A DNA stretch of 64,000 bases from Nitrososphaeria archaeon (GTDB lineage: Archaea > Thermoproteota > Nitrososphaeria > JACIWG01): NCBI GenBank assembly GCA_963760525.1, contig CAVXDT010000010.1, positions 8,098 to 72,097 of the forward strand, read 5' to 3'. A program made the position numbers and the translations under genes. Of this stretch, positions 7,672 through 53,064 are shown one piece after another. The notes beneath the pieces were generated by a model. The model was not told where the DNA came from and searched no databases. It was given only the letters and a program-made list of their open reading frames with translations. The first letter of the stretch is position 1, and every line of letters begins with the position of its first letter.

Positions 7672-8004
7672 ATTTACTTGAATATCATGATGAGCGATTC
7701 CACTTAATCTGATGACTCCTTTCGCACGACAAAATCTGCCCCTTCATCATCGACTTTTGATGAATATACATCGAACCCATATTCGGTAAACTCCATCCTA
7801 ACGAAGTATTCTACATATCAAGTTGAAGGCGTTAAGGCTGCTCCATTCATATTTCTGGGTAGCATACTTCAAAGATAATCATAACAAAGTGGAAAAGCTT
7901 ATTGTGAATCTTACTAACGAAATTAATGCAAGCGCATAGCACAAATTTAAATAAGCATTTGGGTCTTACATTTTATTGCGGGGAATAGTGGGAATTAGTG
8001 AGTT

Positions 8005-10428
8005 ATGACTTCAAAAAATAGTTCGGGACCAAAAGAGCTAAGTGGAAACAACTTTTATGCAGATTCAGAAAAAGGTTTAAGCTCAGATGAAGTTCAAAAA
8101 AGATTAGAGGAATTTGGATACAACGAAGTTCCAGAGAAGAAGGCTAACCCTCTCTCCCAATTTGTGAAGAGGTTTTGGGGCGTAACACCATGGATGCTTG
8201 AAGTAACCATAGTACTCGAATGGCTTCTAGGAAAATTACTTGAAATGTACATAATATCTGGGCTTCTAGTCTTCAATGCAGTTTTGGGCTTTTTGAAGAG
8301 GAAAGAGCTAACTCTGCGCTTGAGCTTCTTAAGCAAAGACTGAGAGTCAACGCGAGAGCAAAACGTAGTGGGGCTTGGACATTGATTTCTGCAAGAGAGC
8401 TAGTACCTGGAGACATCATTAGGCTTAGAGCAGGTGACCTTATTCCCGCAGACACCAAGGTATTAATTGGGAGCGCTGAAGTCGATCAGTCATCACTAAC
8501 CGGAGAGTCCCAAGCAGTCGAAAAACAAGTTAATGAAGTATTATATAGTGGTTCAATCCTTAGAAGAGGCGAAATATCCGGTATTGTTGTCTCTACGGGT
8601 GTAAAAACGTATTTTGGAAGAACCGTGGAGCTAGTCCAAGTTGCGAAACCCAAGTTGCACATGGAAGAGGTGACTTCCAAGGTTGTAAAGTGGCTTGATG
8701 GCGATTGTGGGATCATTTCTTTCAATTAGCATAGTCGTCTCCATCTTGAGAGGGATGGATATACTGGAGATACTTCCGTTAGCGGTCGTTCTTTTGATTT
8801 CGGCAATACCTGTTGCTCTGCCTACGATGTTCACGGTCACCATGGCCCTTGGCTCCTTGGAAATGATGAAGAAAGGGATACTGGTTACAAGGCTGAGCGC
8901 AAGCGAGGATGCGGCGACGACGGATGTAATATGTGTTGATAAGACTGGGACAATTACCATGAACAAGCTTCAAGTGGCGGAGACTGTGCCTGCAAGAGGA
9001 TACAGAAATGAGGATGTAATATTGTTTGGCGCTTTAGCATCTAATGAGGCAAACCAGGACTCGATCGACCTTGCTTTCCTATCAGCTGCGAATAACATTA
9101 GTGACCCAATTTGAAGGTTATTTGCAAGAGAAGTTTGTGCCCTTTGATCCTTTGACCAGGAGAACAGAGGCTATTATCTCCATAGAAGGGAAGAGATTTC
9201 ATGTGCTTAAAGGAGCGGTTGGAACTATATTCTCTTTGTGCAAGATGGGCCAAGAAGCATCAAGCCAGATGGGAGAGGGAAGTTGAGCGATTATCAAATA
9301 AGGGGTATAGGGTGATAGCTGTAGCTGAAGGTAAAGCTGACTATGACATTAACATGGTAGGTTTAGCTGCGTTGTATGACAAGCCTAGACCTGATTCCCA
9401 AGAGCTAATAACTGAGCTTAATGAAGTTGGCATTTCAGTGAAGATGTTAACTGGAGACGCTTTGCCAGTAGCTAAAGAAGTTGCAGAGCAGGTCGGCTTA
9501 GGCAAAAACATTGTCAAGTTCTCAGATGTAAAAGGGCTCCCGGAGGACGAACTCATTAAGACTTTGGAAGGAAATAGTGGATTCGCGGAGATCTATCCGG
9601 AGGACAAGTACTCTATAGTTAAGAGTCTTCAGAGAGGAGGGCACATTGTTGGAATGACAGGCGATGGCGTCAACGATGCTCCTGCCTTGAAACAGGCTGA
9701 AGTAGGTATAGCTGTAAGTAACGCTACGGATGTAGCTAAGAAGGCTGCCAGCGCTGTCCTCACAACAGAAGGACTAGTGGGTATACTGGACCTAATTAAA
9801 ACCGGTAGGATCATACATCAGAGGATAATAACTTGGATTCTTAATAAAGTGGTCAAAACATTCCAGATAACCATTCTAGTAGTCCTCGCATTTCTTCTGA
9901 CAGGAACGTACATAATATCCGCGTTTCACATGATCTTACTGATATTCTTAACAGATTTTGTAACCTTATCGTTATCAACAGACAATGTTCGATATTCTGA
10001 AAAACCAGATAGCTGGAATATAACAGGCCTGGTCAAGGTGGCTGTTTGCCTTGGGGGTTATAGTTGTGGCAGAGTTGCTGATCATACTCGGAATAGGCCT
10101 TAATTACTTTGGGCTCGGGAACAATATCAATCAATTGTATACTTTTTCGTTCGAACTGCTGATCTACGTGGAATTATGTGATATGTTGATAGTTAGGGAA
10201 CGGAAACATTTCTGGAATTCGAGACCCAGTAATCCTTTACTAATAATAATTTTAGGCGACCTATTGCTTGTCTTCCTCATATCAATTTTTGGGTTACCTG
10301 GGGTGACTCCGATAAATCCAATCATCGCTCTGATGGTTCCAGCGTTTTCTTTCACTGCAGCCTTCTTAGTGAATGATTTCATCAAGGTACCTTTAATAAA
10401 GAAGTTTTGGTCGAGAGTAGGTTTCTGA
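8005..10428 (+). pseudogene. type III (plasma-membrane H+-type) P-type ATPase, five frame disruptions
   Basis: Six consecutive ORF fragments (8005, 8382, 8695, 9044, 9201, 10051) together give a colinear P-type ATPase. Motifs present are TGES (SLTGESQAV), the phosphorylation site CVDKTGTITMNKL, and the hinge MTGDGVNDAPALKQAEVGIAV. Junctions lie near 8290 (T5 run), 8695, 9097, 9268 and 10055 (G5 run). Confidence 0.85.
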
Positions 10429-15049: not shown

Positions 15050-16398
15050 TTACTTTGCTAATGTTCCCATTGGATCCCAACATGGGAGGACAATAGGTTC
15101 GGTGTCTAGAGCTTTTAAGAGCTCTGGAGAGAGGTATTTTTTCCTAACGGTTATTTCGTACAGGTATTCGTCGAACCATTCATCCATCATATACATATAA
15201 CCTTTGTCCCCAATCGTAGCCCCCCAGCTGTTTTCAACTCGCCATTTTCTCGGTTTGCCTTTCTCATCTAGGTCCACACCTGTTAAGACCATGGCGTGAG
15301 TCATCTCGCTGTTCCTATAGTCCAATCTTCCAGCTTTATCAAGTTTGAAATCCATTCCGAAGACGAGTTTATAGTCATATACGTTCAAATCCATTGCGCC
15401 CATCTCTGTTTCAAGCATCTGGGCTACGTCGCAGCCGAACCAAACCGCATGGTTATCCTTTATCATATCTACGGCAGCTTTCTTCAATGTCATCATATCA
15501 ACATTTAAGTAACGAACCGGACGTCCACCGATGACGTTACCGAGATACTGCACTGTGTAGAGTTTATTATAGGGCTTGTCCTTGGTTGGGGCGTTTATTA
15601 GGCAGACTAGATCATTCAGGTCAATATCCACATATTTCTTGTAGAACTCTTCTGGTGTTATGTTACCATGCCTGTGGAATATGTTGTCCTTGTCCCGCCA
15701 CTCCCAGTAGAAATTGGTCGGAGGTTTCCCAAGTGAATGGCGAGCATCCTATAGAACTCTTCGAGCATTTCTCCTTTTGACCTGCGCAGTTCCTGTGCAG
15801 GAGAACCCTGAGAATGCAGGTCTCTGAGCGTTTTCGCATATTCCCTTAGCTTGGCTACAAGCAGGGTGTTCATGGGATCAGAGTTGCTGCTACTGTCTGT
15901 CTCTGGCATAAAAGACTTCGGTACCACGCCGTACTTCTCTACGAGATTCACAAACATGTCCCATTGCCCACCATCGGAAAGTGGGTCAGAGAGAAGCGAC
16001 AGCACCAACCTGCTATCCAATGGCTCATCCCTGGTCTCGATGATGTTCTCAAGAAAGAAGTTCGCCTTCTCTAGTTTATCCCAGAACATCTGGTAGGCCT
16101 CCGAAAGTTCAAAAGTCTTAAGGTTCAACTTCTTCATAGCCTCTAGGCAAAGAGAACTAAGCCCGGAGAATAGCCAACATCGCCCTGACCGCTCCTGATT
16201 AGTAGCCTCCGGCGACTCTATAAGATGACTAAATGTGTAGTTAATTCGGTCAACTTCCTTCCGACTCAAAGCTACAGCAGCTATACCGTTCTCAGTCACA
16301 GCGTTCAACGCAAGAAGATTCTTAGGATCCCTATCAAAAGATGTTAAAAACCGCTTAACATCCGCATTCTGGATAGTCTTATCCAAGATATTTCTCAA
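15050..16398 (-). pseudogene. pepC: aminopeptidase C / bleomycin hydrolase (peptidase C1B), one frameshift
   Basis: ORFs 15658..16398 (active-site region NQERSGRCWLFS) and 15050..15631 (HAMVLTGV...ENSWG) are colinear with PepC. The frames join at AIHLG|KPPTNFYWEW, at an A/T3 run near 15725-15728. Confidence 0.8.
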
Positions 16399-19833: not shown

Positions 19834-20910
19834 ATGGACTATCACGAAATAGAGACTCCGGCCTTAATCTTGGAAGCAGACGTCATGGGACATAATATGA
19901 AAGTCATGAGAGAATGGTTGTATGGAAAGAATGTCAGGTTAAGGCCTCATTTTAAGACACCTAAGACACCTATTATTGCATGGCAACAAATACGAAATGG
20001 CGCCTTGGGTGTCTGCGCTCAAAAGCTTGGCGAAACCGAGGTGCTGGTTAATGCTGGAATTGAAGATATACTGCTTACTAATCAGATCGTAGATGAGAAT
20101 AAGATATTGAAGCTGGTAAATATGCGCAAGTATTCGGATATCAAGGTGGTTGTCGATAATGTTGCGAACATAAGAGATCTATCTAAACATGCGTCAAGGA
20201 AGAAAGTCGAAATTGGAGTTCTTGTTGAGATTAACGTGGGAATGAACAGATGCGGCATCGATGATCCTAGGGAAGCTCTTAGTGTTGCCAAGACTGTAAA
20301 CGAAAGTGAAGGTCTAGTTTTCAAAGGTTTGCAATGCTATTCAGGACATTTACAGATGGCTGACTTGAAGATTGGACGAGAAAAAAAGATAGAAGGATGT
20401 AAAAAGGTCTGCCAGAAGATAAACGAAACTAGAGAACTTTTTGACAATGAAGGCCTTCACCCTGAAATCATTTCTGGTGCGGGCACGGGAACTTACAAAT
20501 ACGAATATGAAGTATTAGATGAAATTCAAGCAGGATCCTATATTTTTATGGATGTTGGTTACAATAAGGTTGCGCCAGAATTTAGCATTTCTTTAACGTT
20601 GCTCGCAACAGTAATTAGTACACCTTCGAAGAATAGAGCGATAATAGATGCTGGGCTAAAAGCGATTTCCACCGACAACGGCATGCCAGTATTGAAGGAC
20701 ATTAAAGGCGTTGAATGTCTAATAAGTTCAGAGGAACACGGAGTTCTTATAGTAAATGATCAATCTACGCAGTTCAATATAGGAGATAAAGTCGAACTCT
20801 ATCCGAGCCATTGCGATACAACAGTAAATCTACATGATGCATACAACGTTGTCAGAGACGGTGAACTTGAAGCCGTATGGCCAATAAGCGCACGAGGACA
20901 ATTTTATTGA
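19834..20910 (+). CDS. D-serine dehydratase-like / D-threonine aldolase family PLP enzyme (alanine racemase N-terminal fold)
   Basis: 358 aa. It has the PLP-lysine motif LRPHFKTPKT and a C-terminal ELYPSHCDTTVNLHD typical of the DSD1/D-TA family. Confidence 0.75.
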   Translation: MDYHEIETPALILEADVMGHNMKVMREWLYGKNVRLRPHFKTPKTPIIAWQQIRNGALGVCAQKLGETEVLVNAGIEDILLTNQIVDENKILKLVNMRKYSDIKVVVDNVANIRDLSKHASRKKVEIGVLVEINVGMNRCGIDDPREALSVAKTVNESEGLVFKGLQCYSGHLQMADLKIGREKKIEGCKKVCQKINETRELFDNEGLHPEIISGAGTGTYKYEYEVLDEIQAGSYIFMDVGYNKVAPEFSISLTLLATVISTPSKNRAIIDAGLKAISTDNGMPVLKDIKGVECLISSEEHGVLIVNDQSTQFNIGDKVELYPSHCDTTVNLHDAYNVVRDGELEAVWPISARGQFY

Positions 20911-23332: not shown

Positions 23333-26300
23333 TCACCTTCTTCCAAACCTCCTATAAATAAAGAATAGCCCCACGACTGCTAATATAATGAGTATTACTG
23401 CATATATGATCCAGTTCGTTGTTTGGAGAACTTCAACCCTTAACGTGACGACTTGGGATGTGGTTTGATCAGATGATATGGTGAAGTCGATATAATAGTT
23501 GCCAGCATTGACACTTGGGTCTGTCTGGGCTGTGATGGTGAAGGTGGACTCCTGATTTGTTTCTAATGAGGATGTGGATGTAGGGTTAACGCTTACAGTG
23601 AAACCATCTGGTGCTGTTCCTGCGACAACCTTCGCATTTGTGATCTCTCTGCTTCCGTCATTCAGGATGGTCAAGGAGAATGTTCCTTGACTACCAACAT
23701 TCAAAGAGGTGTAGAAGTTCTGGTTGGTTATTGTGACTTCGTATTTGCCTACGATGTTAAGGGTTAGATCTATTGTTTCATTTAATTCAGCATTGAATGC
23801 TGAGGTAGAGAACGCTTGGGGTCCTAATTCCACCTTTGTGGGTGTTGAGACAATCATATAGAATTGTTTTGACTGACTTGCCTGCACGTAGACCTTAGTG
23901 ATCTCTTGTTCCGTAGTGTCTTCGAACCAAACCTTAAAGTCTTTTGTTAGTCCTACAGTTGTAAGGTTAAGAAGTTCATCATAACCACCTAAATCAGAAA
24001 GTTTGAGCGTGAACTTTGCTTGGGAGCCTCCGTACACATCTTCATAAGGTGGGATGGCTTCTAATCCGATACTCGCGGTGTGTCTTTGTATAACTAGAAG
24101 CAATGGTAGATCCTCAGACAGCCATGTGGACTTTGCTGTGAAGACTAAATCATATTTTCCTTCGCTGACACTTAATGGTGTGGAGACTGCAATGACAAGA
24201 TCTACAGACCCGCTTCCTTCCAACGTCACTTCTGACACCGTTTCACCTTGGGTGTTCATAATGGACACAATCCAATCTTTCTGGATTGAGTCAACCGAAA
24301 CGCTGAAAAGCTGTTTGACATCTGTTGGGTTCATCACATTAACTTTGAATTGAACGGTTTCGCCAGGTGCAGCAGACTTCCCAGGAAACTGGCAGGATAT
24401 TACTGTCTTAGTTGAAGGCTGGACCTTTATCATAAAATCTAGTGATGAATTTATTTTTCCGATAGCTGTTAGAGTTAAGTTATAGTTCAAGAGAGCCGTT
24501 GATGGAACCATGACTTCCAACGTAAGCGACAAACTCTGCCCAGACGCCAACGCAGCCTTTAAAACCTCTTGGTCATCCTGACCGAGAATTCGCGTAGACC
24601 ACCCTCCAGGATTGGATACCAAAAACACTATGGTTTCTGACACTCCGCCAATATTGCTCACCATGAATGGAATCAGCAGCTTACTGCCAGGACTTGCAAC
24701 CACACTCAAGACCGAGGAAGACAACTTGACAGCTTTAGCCAACACTATTTCCCCAACATCGACATTCACATCTTTCAAGACAACATTCTTAGCGACTTCA
24801 ACATATCCCTCCCTCGAAAAGTGGACGGAGACCGTGGTGGAAGTCGGCAATTCAATTGAGAAGGCTCCATTGGGAGATGTGTCTGAACTCCCAATAAGAA
24901 CCCCATCAGAAGAATACACTTCGATACCAACTTCCTCCATCCTCTTGCCATATTCATCCACAACGTTACCGGAAAATGTGATAGCAGGCTGGGAACGAGT
25001 GACTATCGTAAAAACCAATGACGAATTAGTAGCCGTTCCAATAACCGTTAATGGGATATTATAATCCATATCCAAGAGAGCCGTTGATGGAACCATGACT
25101 TCCAACGTAAGCGACAAACTCTGCCCAGACGCCAACGCAGCCTTTAAAACCTCTTGGTCATCCTGACCGAGAATTCGCGTAGACCACCCTCCAGGATTGG
25201 ATACCAAAAACACTATGGTTTCTGACACTCCGCCAATATTGCTCACCATGAATGGAATCAGCAGCTTACTGCCAGGACTTGCAACCACACTCAAGACCGA
25301 GGAAGACAACTTGACAGCTTTAGCCAACACTATTTCCCCAACATCGACATTCACATCTTTCAAGACAACATTCTTAGCGACTTCAACATATCCCTCCCTC
25401 GAAAAGTGGACGGAGACCGTGGTGGAAGTCGGCAATTCAATTGAGAAGGCTCCATTGGGAGATGTGTCTGAACTCCCAATAAGAACCCCATCAGAAGAAT
25501 ACACTTCGATACCAACTTCCTCCATCCTCTTGCCATATTCATCTAAGACCCTGCCTGAGAAGGTAATCGTGGGTATGGAACGAGTGACTATCGTAAAAAC
25601 CAATGACGAATTAGTAGCCGTTCCAATAACCGTTAATGAAATATTGTAACCTAGGTTCAAGACAGCTGTTAATGGAACCGAAACCTCCAACTTAAGCGAC
25701 AAACTCTGCCCAGGCGACAACGCAGACTTTGAAACCTCATAGTTCTGGTCCATAACACTTACAGACCAAGTTTGAGGCTTCGAAACTTGATACTGCACAA
25801 CTTCGGATCCTTCACCAAGATTGCTCACCGTAAACGGAATGCTGATTTCGTCCCCAGGAGCAGCTAACAAGCTTAAGGTTGAAGCTGAAAGCTTCAAAGC
25901 CTTACTCAAAACTATGGAACGAGTGACTATCGTAAAAACCAATGACGAATTAGTAGCCGTTCCAATAACCGTTAATGAAATATTGTAACCTAGGTTCAAG
26001 ACAGCTGTTAATGGAACCGAAACCTCCAACTTAAGCGACAAACTCTGCCCAGGCGACAACGCAGACTTTGAAACCTCATAGTTCTGGTCCATAACACTTA
26101 CAGACCAAGTTTGAGGCTTCGAAACTTGATACTGCACAACTTCGGATCCTTCACCAAGATTGCTCACCGTAAACGGAATGCTGATTTCGTCCCCAGGAGC
26201 AGCTAACAAGCTTAAGGTTGAAGCTGAAAGCTTCAAAGCCTTACTCAAAACTATGGTACCCAAATTAGTGAGTATGTCCTGCACGTTGATGTTCTTAACA

Positions 26301-26865: not shown

Positions 26866-27277
26866 ATGTATAGAATGGAATTAACTTTGGAAGAAGCAAA
26901 AAAGATCGTACAAGATGCAGAAGCTAAAGCAAAAGAGATAAGCGTCATGATGAACATCGCAGTTGTAGATATCGGCGGAAACCTAATCGCATTTGAGAGG
27001 ATGGACAAGGCCTGGCTAGGAAGCATAAACATAGCCATAAACAAAAGCGTTCACAGCAGTTGCGTTCAATATGACGACCGAGGATTTAGGCAAAGAATCT
27101 CAAGCAGGCAAATCACTCTTTGGAATACACGCAACAAACAACGGCAGACTGGTAATATTCGGCGGCGGCATTCCTCTAAAGAAGAAAGGTGAACTTGTAG
27201 GCGCAATCGGCGTCAGCGGAGGAGCTGTACCCCAAGACATAGAAGTCGCCAAAGCAGGCATTAAAAACTTCAAGTAG
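26866..27277 (+). pseudogene. GlcG/HbpS-like (DUF336) heme/corrinoid-binding family protein, one frameshift at an A4 run
   Basis: ORFs 26866..27192 and 27071..27277 join as ...INIAINK|AFTAVAFNMTTEDLGK...GGGIPL...GAIGVSGG. The junction is at the A-run 27043-27046. Confidence 0.7.
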
Positions 27278-27396
27278 GCAAACAACCCTACTTTCCTTTT
27301 TTTCGGTAATTTTGGACAAAAGACCAGATTTTTATGGTCTCTGAATCACCTCTTGTGATTATAATGATATAAAGGGCTGAGGATTATTCAAAAAAA

Positions 27397-27864
27397 ATGC
27401 CCCATCTGATTATTGAGAAGTTGCATACTCAGTACTTGCAAGGGACAGAACCTGACATTTTAGGAATTCCCAGATGCTACACTTTGACCCATTCTGATTC
27501 GACAGGTGATTTATTCTTGACAATAGGACCCAACTACGATCGACAACAGATTTCAGGTTGGTACACACGTTTGATGAGAGATGAAGTACTTGCTGAATGG
27601 AAACTCGACTCAGATAAGCTAACACTAGATGTATTCTGCCACATCAGCGGAGGTTTAGTTTTTGGCAGAGCTGGATGGAGGAATACAATTTTTCGAAATG
27701 AGCTACCATTGGTCCTTGAAACTTTCAGATATGGGGACAAAACACTATATGACAATGATCCTAAACTGGACAAATCGCCTATTATCATATACTTTCAATC
27801 ATCAAACAAAAAGTACAACAAAATCGAAAAATGGGGAATTCCAGCTGACTACAAGATTTCCTAA
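27397..27864 (+). CDS. STAY-GREEN (SGR) family protein, Mg-dechelatase homolog
   Basis: 155 aa. PRCYTLTHSD, GWYTRLMRDEVLAEWK, CHISGG, IFRNELPLVLETFRYGD and YFQSSNKKYNKIEKWG are colinear with the conserved core of plant SGR/NYE1 as I remember it. Confidence 0.8.
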   Translation: MPHLIIEKLHTQYLQGTEPDILGIPRCYTLTHSDSTGDLFLTIGPNYDRQQISGWYTRLMRDEVLAEWKLDSDKLTLDVFCHISGGLVFGRAGWRNTIFRNELPLVLETFRYGDKTLYDNDPKLDKSPIIIYFQSSNKKYNKIEKWGIPADYKIS

Positions 27865-27953
27865 GATAGCCTGTCTACTTTAGAATGATCAAACCAGGAA
27901 CTATTGTTTCAAACTAAGTTTTATATACAAACCGTTTAATTTAGAGATACGTA

Positions 27954-29420
27954 TTGAACATCATTAAGGACATAGAAAAGCTTACTACACACGGCAACAT
28001 TCAAGGCAGACAAATCGTCTTGGAGATCCTCGAAGCGGGGCTTAGGGCGTCTGACCCATATGAAAACACAAGAAAACTAATCAATTTTGTCGATGGAAAA
28101 CTCATGATTGGACGGAAAGGTTTAGCATGCCACACATCGGATGGGAGATTTACAGCTAAACCGTTGCTCTTTGACCTATCCAAAATTGGAAAAATATTCG
28201 TTGTAGGGGGAGGAAAAGCAGCTCAAAGACAAGCCAAGGCGATAGAAGATGTCTTAGGTGATCTTATTTCGGAAGGCCACATAAACGCAAAGAAAGGTGA
28301 AGAAATCCTACTGAATAGAATCGGTGTGACTTTAGCTGGTCATCCAATACCAGACGAAGACAGTGTTAAAGGCTCAATGAAGGTAATGGAAATTGAAAAG
28401 AAAGCCCGTAAGGGTGACATCGTATTCTTCTCTGAATCAGGCGGCGCTTCAGCCTTGATGGCTCTACCTGCACCTGGAGTGACTCTACAGGACATAAGAG
28501 AGGTTACTAGAAAGCTCTACTTTGAATGCGGAGCGTCCATGTGGGACACAAACGCTGTCAGATGGAATCTTATGATTTTGAGAGGAAAAGATGAGAGGTA
28601 CATAGGAGAAGCTACGTTAATTGAATTTCATACTGATGAGAGGCCCCAAGAGGTAAATGTCGATATCAGAAGACACAGGCGTGGCACAGGATCCTACAAA
28701 GATGCGATTAACGTCCTCAGAAAATACAAAATATGGGATACAGTACCATATTCTGTCCGGAATCACTTGGAGAAGGCCGACCCACAATATGGACAATTAA
28801 GATATGAAGAAATCAAGGGCAAGCCACATTATCATTTCAGAGTCATGGGACCAGAATACATGCTAGAAGCAGCGACGAAAAAAGCTAGGGAAATGGGAAT
28901 AAACGCCAATATTATTGCTTCAAGTTTAAGCGACATAGAAGCTCGATCAGCTGGAGAAATGCTAGCATTTATGGCCAAAGAAGTTGAAGTATATGGGAGA
29001 CCATTCACGCCACCCTGCGTCCTCATCTGTGGCGGCGAACTGCTTGTCAGGGTTGGAGAGAGCAAGGGGGTAGGCGGTCGAAATCAAGAATTCGTACTTT
29101 CAACTGCAACTAGAATAGCTGGCAGTAAGAACATAGTTATAGCGTCAGCTGACTCTGACGGTGCAGATGGACCCACAGACGCTGCAGGAGGCATTGTTGA
29201 CGGTTACACCCTGAGAAGAGCTAAACAAAATGGCGTAAATATACTGGAAGAACTTGATAAGCACAATTCCTATGAAGCTCTAAAAAGATTGAAAGACAAT
29301 ATCTTCACGGGCGTACAAGGAACAAACGTCCAAGACCTTCGAATAGCGTATGTAGGCGGAAGGACAAAGGCACGTGCTAACCGCTTGCCAGAGGTCATCC
29401 GCGCTCTAGTTGCCAAATAG
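27954..29420 (+). CDS. glycerate 2-kinase / hydroxypyruvate reductase (MOFRL family)
   Basis: 488 aa with a TTG start. VGGGKAA, CGGELLV, GVGGRNQE and SADSDGADGPTDAAGG are typical of the GckA/TtuD MOFRL family. Confidence 0.85.
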   Translation: MNIIKDIEKLTTHGNIQGRQIVLEILEAGLRASDPYENTRKLINFVDGKLMIGRKGLACHTSDGRFTAKPLLFDLSKIGKIFVVGGGKAAQRQAKAIEDVLGDLISEGHINAKKGEEILLNRIGVTLAGHPIPDEDSVKGSMKVMEIEKKARKGDIVFFSESGGASALMALPAPGVTLQDIREVTRKLYFECGASMWDTNAVRWNLMILRGKDERYIGEATLIEFHTDERPQEVNVDIRRHRRGTGSYKDAINVLRKYKIWDTVPYSVRNHLEKADPQYGQLRYEEIKGKPHYHFRVMGPEYMLEAATKKAREMGINANIIASSLSDIEARSAGEMLAFMAKEVEVYGRPFTPPCVLICGGELLVRVGESKGVGGRNQEFVLSTATRIAGSKNIVIASADSDGADGPTDAAGGIVDGYTLRRAKQNGVNILEELDKHNSYEALKRLKDNIFTGVQGTNVQDLRIAYVGGRTKARANRLPEVIRALVAK

Positions 29421-29626
29421 ACAAGATGCTCATCTTTTTCCTTACACTTACATTTTGGCAGGAACTTGTCTTGCAATGAATAAATGTTGATGAGCTTTAA
29501 CTAATTCACCATTTACGTTAGACCCTGACCCCTTATCGAGTAAAGCGCGCATGTGTTCCTTCACTAGAAGGTGTCATAACAGTACAAAAGGTTATAAGCT
29601 TGCTAGAGCGAAGAAAGTATCAAGTT

Positions 29627-31474
29627 ATGCCTAACGGATATATGGGAAAAATCGGCGTAATCGATCTTTCGGATAAAACAGTGAAAATTAAGGATACACT
29701 TGAAGAATACGCAAAGAAGTATCTCGGAGGAAAAGGCTACGCACTGGCACTCCTCTACGAATACTTAAGAGAATTCGAGTCTAAAGGCAACGCAGCAAGG
29801 GACTTGGATCCCTTAGGCCCAGACAATATTCTTATTTTTGCAACAGGTCCTGGCACAGGAATACCAGGTTTCCCGTCGCCCGGAAGATATCAGGCAATGG
29901 CGTTACGTTCTCCACTAACGGGTTCCATAGGTAGCGCCAATTCTGGTGGAGAATTCGGTGCCTTCCTCAAGTTCACAGGTTTCGATGCTTTAGTAATAAA
30001 AGGTGCTTCTGAAAAACCAGTTTACATCTCTGTCGTAGATGGTTCAATAGAGGTTCATGATGCATCTGGATATTGGGGGAAGACGGTCTTCGATACTGAC
30101 GATTTTCTTAGGAAGACTGTAAGCGGGAAAAACGTAAGCGTAGCATGTATAGGAGTTGCTGGAGAAAATCTTGTGCCAATGGCTGTAATCGTGAACGATA
30201 AGCATCGCGCAGCGGGAAGAACTGGATTAGGGGCGGTCATGGGGTCGAAGAAGTTGAAGGCCATAGTTGTCTCTGGTTCCGGGCACGTTTCTATTGCGAA
30301 TCCAGCGAAGTTCAAGGAAGTTTCTAAGGCAGCTTACGAAAAGGAAAGGAAGAACTCTGTTACGGGTGATGGGCTTCCAACATATGGTACAGCGGTCCTT
30401 GTCAACGTAGTAAACAGCGCAGGAATCTTGCCTTACATGAACTGGCAGTTCGGCTTCAATCCTAAAGCGGACAAGATTAGCGGAGAAACCCTCACGAAAC
30501 AATATCTTGAAAAGAAAAGACCATGTTGGGGGTGTAACATCGCTTGCGGGCGCATAAGTTCCGTAAAATCAGGTCCATATCAAATATCACACACAGAGGG
30601 ACCTGAATATGAGAGCATATGGGCGCTGGGAAACTCAACAGGGATCATGGACATGGGCGCTATTATAAAGGCAAATCACCTGTGTGATGAATTCGGACTT
30701 GATCCCATCTCAGTCGGTTCAACAATTGCTGCTGCAATGGAACTACACCAGAAAGGTTACATTAAAGAAGGAGACCTTCAAGGTATGGATCTATCCTTTG
30801 GAAATGCGTCTGCTTTAGTTGATTCAGTTTGGAGGATCGCCCACAAAGATGGATTTGGAAAGTATCTTGCCCTAGGATCAAAAAGACTCTGTGAGATGTT
30901 CGGAGCTCCCGAGCTTTCCATGAGTGTAAAAGGGCTCGAGATGCCTGCCTATGATCCACGGGGAGTGAAAGGAATGGGTTTGAACTATGCAACAGCTAAC
31001 CGTGGAGGCTGTCACGTGACAGGGTATACAATTGCTCCTGAAATAGTTGGGCTTCCGGAAAAAATTGATCCATTAACTATTGAAGGAAAAGCAAAGTGGA
31101 CAAAAACCTTCCAAGATTTGACATGCGTAGTGAACTCTACAGTCAACTGCCTATTTACTACCTTCGCTTTGAGCGCGTCTGATATCGCATCTCTATTGTC
31201 AGCTGTAACTGGATGGAGTCTCACAGAAGATGAAGTAATGAAGATTGGTGAAAGAATTTACAACTTTGAGCGCTTCATAATCAGCAAATACGGGTTCACA
31301 GACAAAGAAGACACTCTGCCCCCTCGTCTACTATCTGAACCCATGCCTGAAGGTCCAGCGAAAGGACAGACAGTCGACCTAGAAACAATGAAGAAAGACT
31401 ATTACAATCTAAGGGGATGGGTGAAGGGAGTACCAACACAAAAGAAATTGAAAGAGCTTCAAATTGAGCTCTAA
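29627..31474 (+). CDS. aor: tungsten-containing aldehyde:ferredoxin oxidoreductase (AOR family)
   Basis: The N-terminus MPNGYMGKIGVIDLS resembles AOR N-termini. EYESIWALG, DPISVGSTIAAAMEL and NRGGCHVTGY motifs are present. The track ORF starts at TTG 29600. Confidence 0.9.
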   Translation: MPNGYMGKIGVIDLSDKTVKIKDTLEEYAKKYLGGKGYALALLYEYLREFESKGNAARDLDPLGPDNILIFATGPGTGIPGFPSPGRYQAMALRSPLTGSIGSANSGGEFGAFLKFTGFDALVIKGASEKPVYISVVDGSIEVHDASGYWGKTVFDTDDFLRKTVSGKNVSVACIGVAGENLVPMAVIVNDKHRAAGRTGLGAVMGSKKLKAIVVSGSGHVSIANPAKFKEVSKAAYEKERKNSVTGDGLPTYGTAVLVNVVNSAGILPYMNWQFGFNPKADKISGETLTKQYLEKKRPCWGCNIACGRISSVKSGPYQISHTEGPEYESIWALGNSTGIMDMGAIIKANHLCDEFGLDPISVGSTIAAAMELHQKGYIKEGDLQGMDLSFGNASALVDSVWRIAHKDGFGKYLALGSKRLCEMFGAPELSMSVKGLEMPAYDPRGVKGMGLNYATANRGGCHVTGYTIAPEIVGLPEKIDPLTIEGKAKWTKTFQDLTCVVNSTVNCLFTTFALSASDIASLLSAVTGWSLTEDEVMKIGERIYNFERFIISKYGFTDKEDTLPPRLLSEPMPEGPAKGQTVDLETMKKDYYNLRGWVKGVPTQKKLKELQIEL

Positions 31475-31587: not shown

Positions 31588-32877
31588 ATGTCAGCATCCC
31601 CCAAAGCAATGCAGATCGAGATTACCAACAAATGCAATTTCAAATGTATCTACTGCATTCGGAACTTCTGGAATATTCATACAGAAGAAATGAATTTCCC
31701 AACCTTTAGAAAGTTAGCTGAGTCTTTTGGAGACCTGAACAAAATCATCCTGTATGGTCAAGGGGAGCCTCTTGCTCACGAACGCTTTGCTGACATTGTC
31801 AAGCTAACAAGGGAGAAACTTGGCTACGAAGGTGAAATAGATTTTAGCACGAATGGTTCCATGTTGACAGAAGCTCTTGCTTACAAGCTCGTTAAGAGCA
31901 TTGGCGTAAACAAGATATCGTTCTCACTCGACACATTAGAACGTTCAAATCTTGAAAAGTTTAGAGTAGGCGCTGTTGGAAGCAGCATAATAGAAAACTT
32001 GGTGAATATTTCCAAGATCAAGAGCAAGTCCAAGTTTCCGTTTTCTCTTTCTTTGGAAGTCATATTGATGAAGGATAACTACAAGGACCTCCCAAATCTC
32101 ATAAAGTTTGCTGCTGAGAATGATATAGATGATGTACTTGTTACTAATCTTATAGTATATTCAGAGGTTTTGAACGGGCAACAGCTCTATATTCCTTCAA
32201 GCAGGAAATCTTATGAAATAGTTGAGAACGTCTTGGATAAGGGTTGGGATATAATACATGCAGCGACAGTTGGAGCCTATGGTTTAACCCATACGGGGAA
32301 GTATGAACAGGACGACTTGGAAAGGTATAGTAAACTTTGGGAAAGAGTTGAAAATGGAGGTTATTGGATGAACCTGCCACTTCTATTAAAGATGAGAGAT
32401 CAGCTGGATAGAATTAAGGAAGTAGAAGATGTTTTCAAGGAGTCATCTAAAATAGCGAGGAAAGGAGGCGTTAATTTGCAGCTTCCAAGCATCTTCGCTG
32501 ACAGGAGGTCAAGAGCATGTGCCCTTACATCGAAAACGGGGTAATGGCTGTCAGAGCTGATGGAAGCGCAGTGCCATGTCTCGAATATATGTACCCTCAC
32601 ATGGAATATGTAAACCATCACTCGAAAGACATTGGCATGATGACCTTTGGTAATGTCAAAGGCCAAACTGTAAAAGGCATTTGGAATGGTGATGAATATA
32701 TTAGCTTTAGAGAATCTCGAAGATTCATAGATGAGAAAGATCCCGTGGTGTGGCGATTGCGTGTACTCCACATTGGGTTGCTTCTATGTTCGTTCCAATG
32801 AGATAGATTGCCAAAGGGTCGAAAGCTCTTGTAGCGAATGCCTCTACAGTACAAATATAGCCAAATGTATGTTATAA
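31588..32877 (+). pseudogene. radical SAM/SPASM protein of the AOR-associated Cmo (cofactor-modifying) type, two compensating frame shifts
   Basis: CNFKCIYC is a CxxxCxxC cluster. The reading frame goes 1 -> 0 near 32495-32515 (MCPYIENGVMAVRADGSAVPC) and back to 1 near 32738 (IPWCGDCVYSTLGCF...CSECLYSTNIAKC). The gene lies immediately downstream of aor. Confidence 0.7.
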
Positions 32878-41087: not shown

Positions 41088-42525
41088 GTGAACACGGAAA
41101 ACTTAGATTCTGATATTCCCCTCTATGCAGTTGCAGAAGCTGAGAAAGCAGGTGCAGAATATGCTGAAGCAAGATTGCAGGCAAAGAAAGACATTATGGT
41201 AGCAATAAGAAATGGACAACAAGAACCGATTGTTACAAGCGAATCTTTTGGCTTGGGTGTAAGAGTAATCAAAGAAGGAGGCTTAGCTTTTTCTGCTACA
41301 AATGTCCTTGATAAAGAAAACATACGTCTACTTGTAGAACAAACAGTCAAGAAAGCACAAGCGACGTCCACCTTTGTTCAAAAAGGGATTAAATTCAGCA
41401 GAGAAAGGAAAGCGAAAAGAAAATGGAGAGCACAAGAAAAAGACAAATTGGAGGACAAGAACTTCGAAGATATCATGAAGATACTCCGTGAACTTGACAA
41501 CATTATTCTTCTGAGGAGGGACTATATTCCCATGAGGATCTTGGAGATGGACATCACGATTGATGAAAAAATCCTAAGTAACACACAAGGGACATTCATC
41601 CAAGGATATGTACCAAGAATTTACGTTGAAGGCTTTTTGACAGGTATGAAAGAAGGAAAAATGGCACAGAAGTCGATAGAATATGGCGGTAGTGGAGGAT
41701 GGGAGATAATCGAAACCTTGAAGATTAGAGAAGAAATACAGCATGAGACAGATGTCATAAAACAGATCATTGAGAAGGGGCGAGCGGTCACTCCTGGCAA
41801 TTACGATATTGTGACCGGTTCTGAAGTCACTGGTATAATGGCCCATGAATCCATAGGACACCCCTTCGAGGCAGATAGGATATTGGGTAGAGAAGCAGCT
41901 CAAGCTGGCGAATCTTATCTGAAGTCTTCTGACATTGGAAGAAAGATAGGTGATAATGAAGTTAATGTGAGTGATGACCCGACCATTCCGAATTCATATG
42001 GCTTCTACCTGTATGACGAAGAAGGAATCCCTGCGAAGAAAAAGAAGACTTGTTGTAAACGGTATTGTAAATGAACTCTTACATAACAGAGGTACAGCCA
42101 GAGAGTTCGGGACAAAAAGCAATGGTTCCTCGAGAGCTTCGGCATTTGACCGTGAACCCATAGTTAGAATGGCAAACACTTTTGTTGAGCCCGGAAGCTA
42201 CTCTTTTGAAGAACTCATCAGAGAAGTTAAGAATGGAATATACATGAACTCTTTCATGGAATGGAATATAGACGACACAAGATGGAATCAAAGATATGTC
42301 GGTCATGAATCCTACCTAATAGAGAAAGGAGAGATCAGAGCTCCTATAGTCAACCCCATCATAGAAATTACTACTGAGAGATTGTGGGGTAGTCTAGACG
42401 CTAGAGGAAAAGATCTTAGATTTTGGGCCGCTACATGTGGCAAGGGGGACCCTATGCAAGGTGCCCCAGTTTGGGCCGGTGGACCAAACCTAAGATTCAA
42501 GAACATGATGGTGAAGACAAGATGA
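41088..42525 (+). pseudogene. tldD: TldD metalloprotease, one frameshift at an A5 run
   Basis: ORFs 41088..42074 (GTG start; HESIGHPFEADR zinc motif) and 41971..42525 join as EEGIPAKKK|RLVVNGIVNELLHNR at the A-run 42039-42043. Confidence 0.85.
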
Positions 42526-52952: not shown

Positions 52953-53064
52953 CGCCGGGGGTGGGATTTGAACCCACGACACCCACGAGGAGTGACAGGC
53001 TTACTCGCTGCAACTTTTGCGTTTGTCTCAAGGCCTGCGCATTAGTCCACTCTGCCACCCCGGC
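52953..53064 (-). tRNA. tRNA-Ser(UGA) with ~25-nt intron after position 37/38; no encoded CCA
   Basis: Manual fold. Acceptor GCCGGGG/CCCCGGC; anticodon stem CAGGC/GCCTG; loop CUUGAGA (anticodon at 53030-53028); long variable arm; T arm GTGGG-TTCAAAT-CCCAC; discriminator G. Confidence 0.85.
53002..53026 (-). other. tRNA-Ser intron
   Basis: ACAAACGCAAAAGTTGCAGCGAGTA interrupts the anticodon arm. The boundary is ambiguous by 1 nt because of flanking A residues. It contains an internal GCAA-AAG-TTGC hairpin. Confidence 0.7.

Follow-up and report, generated by a model that had tools for sequence, protein, structure and literature searches.

A 64,000-nucleotide stretch of DNA from a Nitrososphaeria archaeon (assembly GCA_963760525.1, contig CAVXDT010000010.1, positions 8,098 to 72,097 of the forward strand; hereafter the window) encodes a 155-amino acid homolog of the Mg-dechelatase STAY-GREEN (SGR). 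The protein belongs to the prokaryotic SGR-homolog branch of the Staygreen family. In the explanation that we consider probable as a whole, it is an SGR-type Mg-dechelatase encoded by a stand-alone gene, and the GlcG/DUF336 gene lying upstream is an unrelated neighbor. A preliminary description of the window had recognized the homolog and proposed that the two genes form a tetrapyrrole-handling unit. Coordinates of all features are collected in Table 1.

The family assignment is supported by profile, sequence and structure comparisons. The Pfam Staygreen model (PF12638, cut-off 27 bits) matched the SGR protein with E=5.3e-47 and 159.8 bits, with residues 7 to 152 aligning to positions 5 to 147 of the 147 in the model. 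Among all PDB sequences there was a single match, entry 7Y5Y (E=2.3e-60, ungapped over residues 1 to 154). An AlphaFold2 model of the protein (pLDDT 86.2, pTM 0.84) was compared with known structures using Foldseek, and 7y5y_A, titled 'X-ray Structure of Stay-Green (SGR) from Anaerolineae bacterium', was the sole match below 1e-3 (TM-scores 0.92 and 0.94, root-mean-square deviation 1.7 A, E=3.5e-22, 58% identity). Every motif of this open reading frame (ORF) that the preliminary description quoted is present in the translation, and its identification of an SGR homolog is borne out by a match far better than chance would give. The same holds for its remark on architecture: the protein is close to a bare domain and has neither a Cys-rich tail nor a signal or transit peptide. 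Because it has neither an N-terminal extension nor such a tail, it is a core homolog of the prokaryotic branch and not a plant-type SGR.

The protein in 7Y5Y is AbSGR-h from Anaerolineae bacterium SM23_63 (KPK94580), the subject of a mutagenesis study of twelve residues by Dey et al. (2021; PMC8531759). The D34N and D62N proteins were soluble but inactive, H32A was weakly active, and folding required R26, Y28, T29 and D114; D34 and D62 correspond to Asp107 and Asp132 of AtSGRL. All twelve residues (R26, Y28, T29, T31, H32, D34, T36, R61, D62, E63, R95 and D114) are kept in the window SGR with identical numbering, and they include the catalytic H32, D34 and D62, the R26-D114 salt bridge, Y28 and T29, and the oligomer residues T31, R61, E63 and R95. 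Among 20 close homologs, 11 of the 12 are invariant and T36 is kept in at least 90%, and the catalytic residues are strictly conserved in more than 80 SGR homologs. Sato et al. (2024; PMC11006732) describe a mechanism drawn from the AbSGR-h crystal structure, in which the central Mg is held by D34 while H32 and D62 aid proton transfer, and give as substrates chlorophyll a, chlorophyllide a, protochlorophyllide a and chlorophylls b and c. By homology with AbSGR-h, the window SGR very probably has Mg-dechelatase activity on chlorophyll-type Mg-tetrapyrroles. In the mechanism that we envisage, the cytoplasmic protein would bind such a tetrapyrrole and exchange its central Mg2+ for two protons, with D34 coordinating and destabilizing the metal and the H32-D62 pair handling proton transfer, and the product would be a free-base pheophytin or pheophorbide analogue.

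AbSGR-h resembles the window SGR in length, in its single domain free of any targeting or Cys-rich extension, in 58% of its sequence and in both the H32/D34/D62 and the R26/Y28/T29/D114 residue sets. The window gene differs in its archaeal host and its genomic context. Plant and algal SGR1, SGR2 and SGRL (NYE1) share the PF12638 core and the catalytic aspartates, whereas plant SGR carries a transit peptide and a C-terminal Cys-rich tail that the window protein lacks. Plant SGR enzymes are substrate-specific, acting on chlorophyll a or chlorophyllide a within the PAO/phyllobilin pathway; no downstream pathway genes of chlorophyll breakdown were seen in the window. Bacterial SGR homologs are broad in specificity, according to PMC11006732.

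SGR homologs in archaea and in non-phototrophs have been published before, which removes the novelty implied by the preliminary description. PMC8531759 and its supplement report homologs from bacteria that do not photosynthesize and from Archaea, MCG/Bathyarchaeota and Thorarchaeota among them, and place MCG-1 SG8-32-1 (KON32503), MCG-6 AD8-1 (KON32872) and Thorarchaeota SMTZ-45 (KXH70069) in alignments and trees; homologs from non-phototrophs have been in print since 2019. NCBI already uses the protein name 'staygreen family protein [Candidatus Bathyarchaeota archaeon]', and genome catalogues yielded 1,674 prokaryotic SGR-type proteins in a 2026 preprint, which also mentions archaea. When we scanned a single genome for each species, at least 590 of these genomes had an SGR relative. 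The window adds one archaeal Staygreen member, from a Nitrososphaeria-labelled lineage, to this published distribution, in which the closest bacterial member, AbSGR-h, already has a crystal structure and enzymology. Like the window SGR, the published archaeal SGRs come from non-phototrophic hosts, in that set sediment archaea. The MCG-6 AD8-1 protein (locus L062) is about 55% identical to the window SGR and falls in a different clade of the neighbor-joining tree described below.

The host is apparently non-phototrophic and is a Thermoproteota (TACK) archaeon. Its placement follows from its archaeal markers, among which lysS_arch (TIGR00467), cca_archaeal (TIGR03671) and CDC48 score above cut-off, and from the affinities of its class-I lysyl-tRNA synthetase, which is 73-76% identical to proteins labelled 'MAG: Nitrososphaeria archaeon' (from metagenome-assembled genomes, MAGs), about 60% to those of Nitrososphaerales and 56-59% to those of Bathyarchaeia. 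By this enzyme the host is nearest to the Nitrososphaeria MAGs, unlike the Bathyarchaeia that carry published archaeal SGRs. The window also encodes archease and diphthamide synthase, and an Rfam search found an intron-bearing tRNA that ARAGORN, which reported no tRNA in the window, had missed. The roughly 50 window ORFs that were annotated include no tetrapyrrole-synthesis family, in agreement with the archaeal, apparently non-phototrophic setting first described.

The closest characterized SGR homolog is from Chloroflexota and many of the top matches are from Anaerolineae or Dehalococcoidia, as would be expected if mis-binning or a chimera had joined Chloroflexota DNA to an archaeal contig. 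The probability of such an origin is nonetheless negligible. The junctions on either side of SGR are reproduced in two independent assemblies: L001, an independent short contig from run ERR10755944, encodes the exact SGR protein in the order GlcG-SGR-MOFRL-AOR, and L087, a sister-lineage contig from a different sample, is syntenic with the window. The exact SGR and MOFRL proteins and three other window proteins also occur on one 88,049-bp contig. There is no break in GC content within the window, and tetranucleotide correlations are uniform across all 4-kb blocks (r=0.83-0.94). In a neighbor-joining tree of 81 SGR sequences, built without bootstrap, the window SGR lies inside a mostly Bathyarchaeia clade, beside Dehalococcoidia. 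The concern over chimeric binning raised with the preliminary description can be set aside, and a chimera at the SGR gene is excluded for practical purposes. Because SGRs of Hadarchaeota, Hodarchaeota, MCG-6 and one euryarchaeote are scattered among Chloroflexota in the same tree, repeated transfer of SGR is suggested.

To place the GlcG gene, we surveyed 6 kb on either side of SGR in the best 80 of the at least 590 SGR-bearing genomes, together with 12 further metagenomic loci, using phmmer with the repaired GlcG protein and a hidden Markov model built from 120 GlcG homologs. Except in the window and L001, no GlcG was found within 6 kb of SGR in these 80 and 12 loci, and the pairing recurs nowhere else in the survey. 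Similarly, no SGR lies within 5 kb of close GlcG homologs at three distinct GlcG loci. In the sister lineage L087, the D-serine-dehydratase-like gene directly abuts SGR with no GlcG between them, and the orthologs stand in one row, with 85% identity for this left-flank gene, 86% for SGR and 91% for MOFRL. The 6.5-kb segment of the window that is absent between the same flanking genes in L087 is a lineage-specific insertion or deletion; its tetranucleotide composition does not stand out from the remainder of the window (r=0.92). Across SGR loci, the adjacency to GlcG is not conserved. These results indicate that GlcG is not a functional partner of SGR and that the two genes adjoin through a lineage-specific 6.5-kb insertion or deletion.

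The preliminary description had read GlcG as a heme or corrinoid binder that, together with SGR, would act on scavenged chlorophyll, F430 or corrinoid intermediates. It was right that a DUF336/GlcG gene (PF03928) precedes SGR on the same strand, its stop codon 119 nt before the SGR start codon, an order repeated in L001; it missed that the gene is split in two frames here. PF03928 does take in the heme-binding HbpS and the C-terminal domain of PduO, and both the spacing and this family membership speak for a joint unit. Against it stand the survey and the sister lineage, and also the character of GlcG itself. Its closest solved relative is EfgA (6BWS/6C0Z; E=2.5e-33, residues 1-129), deposited in the PDB as 'Glycolate utilization protein' Efga and known as the formaldehyde sensor of Methylobacterium extorquens, whereas the match to HbpS is distant (E about 1e-10). 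HbpS is an extracellular heme-binding protein of Streptomyces and the origin of the 'heme-binding' label of PF03928; it shares the family with the window GlcG, but it is secreted and GlcG has no signal peptide. EfgA likewise shares PF03928/DUF336 and differs in that the window copy is frameshifted and that the orthologs of the latter, presumably archaeal, sit beside a MIP channel gene. Judged from these alignments, GlcG is unlikely to be a tetrapyrrole binder. In addition, we saw neither F430 nor corrinoid genes in the window, and the sequence between GlcG and SGR has a T7 run at its GlcG end and a TATA-like box ahead of SGR. We therefore regard a two-gene tetrapyrrole unit as very improbable.

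Close GlcG homologs (84-90% identity, on long contigs) have a MIP (aquaporin/glycerol-facilitator) gene downstream of them on the same strand in three of three distinct loci, and never SGR. GlcG and MIP may form a small-aldehyde sensing and permeation pair. The GlcG family is unusually conserved.

The spacer between GlcG and SGR contains, in addition to the candidate oligo-T terminator and the TATA-like boxes, a perfect 6-bp hairpin, and GlcG has a TATA-like motif of its own. This pattern suggests separate leaderless or short-leader archaeal transcripts. On balance, we lean toward SGR being transcribed independently, as a putative stand-alone unit.

GlcG is divided here between ORF 26866-27192, which covers PF03928 positions 1-74, and ORF 27071-27277, which covers positions 64-127; the true start is likely at 26875. 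The break is an extra A in the run at 27043-27046 (AAAA). L001 has AAA at this place, is otherwise identical over 461 aligned nt, and encodes an intact GlcG of 133 amino acids. At least three more window genes are broken, encoding a P-type ATPase, a PepC-like peptidase and a TldD/PmbA-like protein. Given the place of the extra base in an A-run, its absence from L001 and the breaks in at least three further genes, an assembly error, namely a homopolymer indel, is the most likely cause of the frameshift. A programmed frameshift or a real pseudogene is disfavored on the same grounds, the TldD/PmbA-like break also lying in an A-run. Taken together, the broken genes and the GlcG insertion point to homopolymer assembly indels or to several pseudogenes.

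For the role of SGR in organisms that make no chlorophyll, the company that it keeps in relatives offers a testable lead. Only neighbor clusters without SGR overlap were used, confirmed with Pfam and re-counted by phmmer; raw-ORF single-linkage clusters 1, 2, 4, 5 and 10 were antisense or shadow ORFs of SGR in high-GC Chloroflexota and were excluded. Heliorhodopsin (PF18761; representative E=9e-102) lies within 6 kb of SGR in 13 of the 80 loci, in eight cases on SGR's strand and no more than 300 nt away. DegV and an MFS transporter are each found in 13 loci, an AhpC/TSA-like (peroxiredoxin-like) protein in 11, DNA photolyase in nine, PNPOx-like and alpha/beta hydrolase proteins in eight each, a CrtI-like amine oxidase in seven, MsrB in seven (always adjacent and on the same strand) and DUF523+DUF1722 (YbgA) in six. 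At least one of heliorhodopsin, photolyase, CrtI-like oxidase and YbgA is present in 24 of the 80. By our own uncontrolled estimate, the chance that a single-copy gene adjoins SGR within 12 kb is below 1% per genome, for genomes of a few Mb. Archaeal loci with light- or stress-type neighbors include L009, L012, L031, L052 and L064, and locus L092, whose SGR resembles archaeal-clade sequences, carries heliorhodopsin, MFS, superoxide dismutase, nitroreductase, SGR and YbgA together.

Eight of the 80 loci have a TspO/MBR-like membrane protein of roughly 270 amino acids near SGR, directly upstream and on the same strand in six. The best match of these proteins to PF03073 has E=3e-7 (L031, Bathyarchaeota chromosome CP070765), five of the eight members reach E<=0.1, and the cluster profile has no PDB relative at E<=1. 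The 'TspO-like' label is tentative because there is no PDB relative and because only these five members reach PF03073 at that level. The protein is nevertheless a better candidate than GlcG for a tetrapyrrole-binding partner of SGR.

Similar neighbors have been described around heliorhodopsin itself. Chazan et al. report AhpC/TSA, photolyase, PNPOx, DegV and MFS/ABC transporters, and Bulzu et al. report carotenoid genes, photolyase and redox proteins, in both cases read as light or oxidative-stress functions. Staygreen is absent from the heliorhodopsin-neighbor accounts of both, and no link between heliorhodopsin and staygreen, stay-green or dechelatase was found in the literature searched. 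By analogy with these neighborhoods, the recurrent company of SGR in relatives suggests a role in light or photo-oxidative stress. For the window SGR, it is possible, rather than probable, that the physiological role is removal of exogenous or stray Mg-tetrapyrroles as part of such a response. We hold this role at that level because the 64-kb window lacks these partners and because dechelation alone does not abolish photosensitization. A broader proposal, which we put forward as speculative and rather doubtful, is that prokaryotic SGRs are effectors of a heliorhodopsin-linked light and photo-oxidative-stress response, often with a tetrapyrrole-binding TspO/MBR-like partner, and demetallate Mg-tetrapyrrole photosensitizers once the cell is exposed to light. 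These photosensitizers would be endogenous or taken up from phototroph neighbors, and the window SGR would be a stand-alone effector copy. If true, this would give a physiological role to the long-unexplained 'non-photosynthetic SGRs' and reveal the original function, later taken over by plants for use in senescence. The heliorhodopsin and TspO-like lead concerns SGR relatives and not this window.

A nutritional role has also to be weighed, in which SGR would strip Mg from detrital chlorophyll that the cell imports from organic matter in sediment or soil, opening the pigment to breakdown for its phytol or macrocycle carbon, or recovering the Mg. The family has its main representation among anaerobic heterotrophs of sediments (Bathyarchaeia, Anaerolineae and Dehalococcoidia), and alpha/beta hydrolases, the fold of pheophytinase and chlorophyllase, are among the recurrent neighbors counted above. 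In the window, however, no pigment esterase, oxygenase or transporter adjoins SGR and the protein has no signal peptide, and elsewhere the recurrent neighbors are dominated by genes for stress and light, not for catabolism. We consider this role quite improbable.

Several points weigh against the interpretation of the window SGR as a stand-alone chlorophyll-type dechelatase with a photoprotective role. Pheophytin and pheophorbide are themselves photosensitizers, and dechelation alone is not an obvious detoxification. In phmmer searches of the 64-kb window with representatives of all recurrent neighbor clusters, the only matches were to an ABC ATPase and the aldehyde:ferredoxin oxidoreductase (AOR), and genes for heliorhodopsin, photolyase, carotenoids, a TspO-like protein or any other pigment function were not found; the genes that do surround SGR belong to C2/C3-acid and aldehyde metabolism. 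The promoter and terminator assignments are putative, read from sequence motifs. No enzymatic data for any archaeal SGR homolog were found in the literature searched. PMC8531759 calls the physiological relevance of non-photosynthetic SGR homologs unknown, and published bacterial homologs differ widely in activity and specificity, their chlorophyll activity being termed 'promiscuous'.

An alternative is a true SGR-fold enzyme whose native archaeal substrate is not of chlorophyll type but another metallated or planar ligand, dechelation of chlorophyll being a promiscuous, homolog-dependent activity as in the bacterial literature. The non-phototrophic host and the local aldehyde and organic-acid context agree with this, as do the contexts of archaeal-clade SGRs, which vary and include PhzF, DsrE, nitroreductase and AOR. 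On the other side, the Mg-acting catalytic residues are strictly kept throughout the more than 80 homologs, AbSGR-h, the closest characterized relative, shows high activity toward numerous Mg-chlorins and porphyrins, and the recurrent neighbors in relatives are light- or tetrapyrrole-related (heliorhodopsin, photolyase, TspO-like). A different native substrate is thus unlikely, and action on chlorophyll-type Mg-tetrapyrroles is the reading that we retain.

Downstream of SGR, the MOFRL gene is the sole neighbor kept in the sister lineage L087, where it adjoins SGR. MOFRL, AOR and the radical-SAM maturase-like gene look like aldehyde or organic-acid metabolism rather than pigment chemistry. With the BhcC-like gene, the set recalls glyoxylate/glycerate metabolism or the lower non-phosphorylative Entner-Doudoroff pathway, with NCBIfam scores all below cut-off.

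Table 1. Features of the window and of related loci. Positions without a prefix refer to the window; L numbers denote loci in other genomes or contigs.
Feature	Position	Strand	Evidence or remarks
P-type ATPase gene, at least five frame pieces	8002-10100	+	
PepC-like Peptidase_C1_2 gene, two pieces	15050-15631, 15658-16398	-	
D-serine-dehydratase-like/BhcC-like pyridoxal phosphate enzyme	19834-20910	+	Pfam, NCBIfam; 85% to L087:3-356, where the ortholog directly precedes SGR
Segment absent between the same flanking genes in L087	20911-27396		6.5 kb: ABC-2 permease, ABC ATPase, 1081-aa surface protein, GlcG
Repeat-rich surface protein, 1081 aa	23333-26578	-	CarboxypepD_reg and NPCBM_assoc; C-terminal transmembrane helix
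GlcG/DUF336 (PF03928), EfgA-like, +1 frameshift here	26875-27277	+	PF03928 halves; 133 aa intact in L001; PDB EfgA 6BWS
GlcG frameshift site	27040-27049	+	AACAAAAGCG here, AACAAAGCG in L001; extra A in homopolymer
T7 run, candidate archaeal oligo-T terminator	27297-27303	+	20 nt after GlcG stop; putative function
Perfect 6-bp hairpin AGACCA-N8-TGGTCT, T5 loop	27321-27340	+	In GlcG-SGR spacer
TATA-like TTATAA and ATATAA, candidate SGR promoter	27359-27372	+	25-38 nt before SGR start; archaeal promoter consensus
SGR/Staygreen-family Mg-dechelatase homolog	27397-27864	+	155 aa, single domain; PF12638, 7Y5Y, AlphaFold model
TTTATATA box, candidate promoter	27920-27927	+	27-34 nt before TTG start of next gene; putative
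DUF4147+MOFRL, glycerate-2-kinase-like	27954-29420	+	Pfam; NCBIfam glycerate 2-kinase models below cut-off; 91% in L087
Aldehyde:ferredoxin oxidoreductase (AOR)	29600-31474	+	PF02730, PF01314
Radical SAM protein, resembles tungsten-cofactor oxidoreductase maturase	31588-32544	+	Below cut-off
TldD/PmbA-like gene, split at A5 run	41088-42074, 41971-42525	+	
tRNA, 112 nt, 28-nt intron, long variable arm	52953-53064	-	Rfam, 48 bits
Heliorhodopsin-SGR loci, examples	L027:4677-6014; L022:84-1364; L029:5118-6447; L046:5175-6465; L077:5155-6468; L085:420-1811; L052:868-2814; L092:1-7634		
TspO-like loci	L031:5065-5865; L017:3874-4659; L041:2-928; L044:125-988; L051:5076-5858; L057:475-1257; L028:5143-6054; L082:10123-11034		
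GlcG-MIP loci	L088:5001-6125; L089:5001-5993; L090/L091:5001-6213		

In three lineages AOR is found no more than about 2 kb from SGR: in the window, in L002 (5522-7907) and in L071 (6614-8503). L002 belongs to the P0002 lineage (L002-L004), in which AOR occurs with a Fer4 gene and is divergent, and L071 is a Nitrososphaeria MAG. Orientation and distance differ among the three, and we treat AOR as unproven as a conserved SGR partner. AOR paralogs may be frequent in such genomes, so that the proximity may be due to chance.

The surface-protein gene in the 6.5-kb segment contains two perfect tandem duplications, at 24488-25372 (585-bp period) and 25574-26256 (339-bp period), each of two copies with 100% identity. 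Either they arose very recently or they are an artefact of the assembly.

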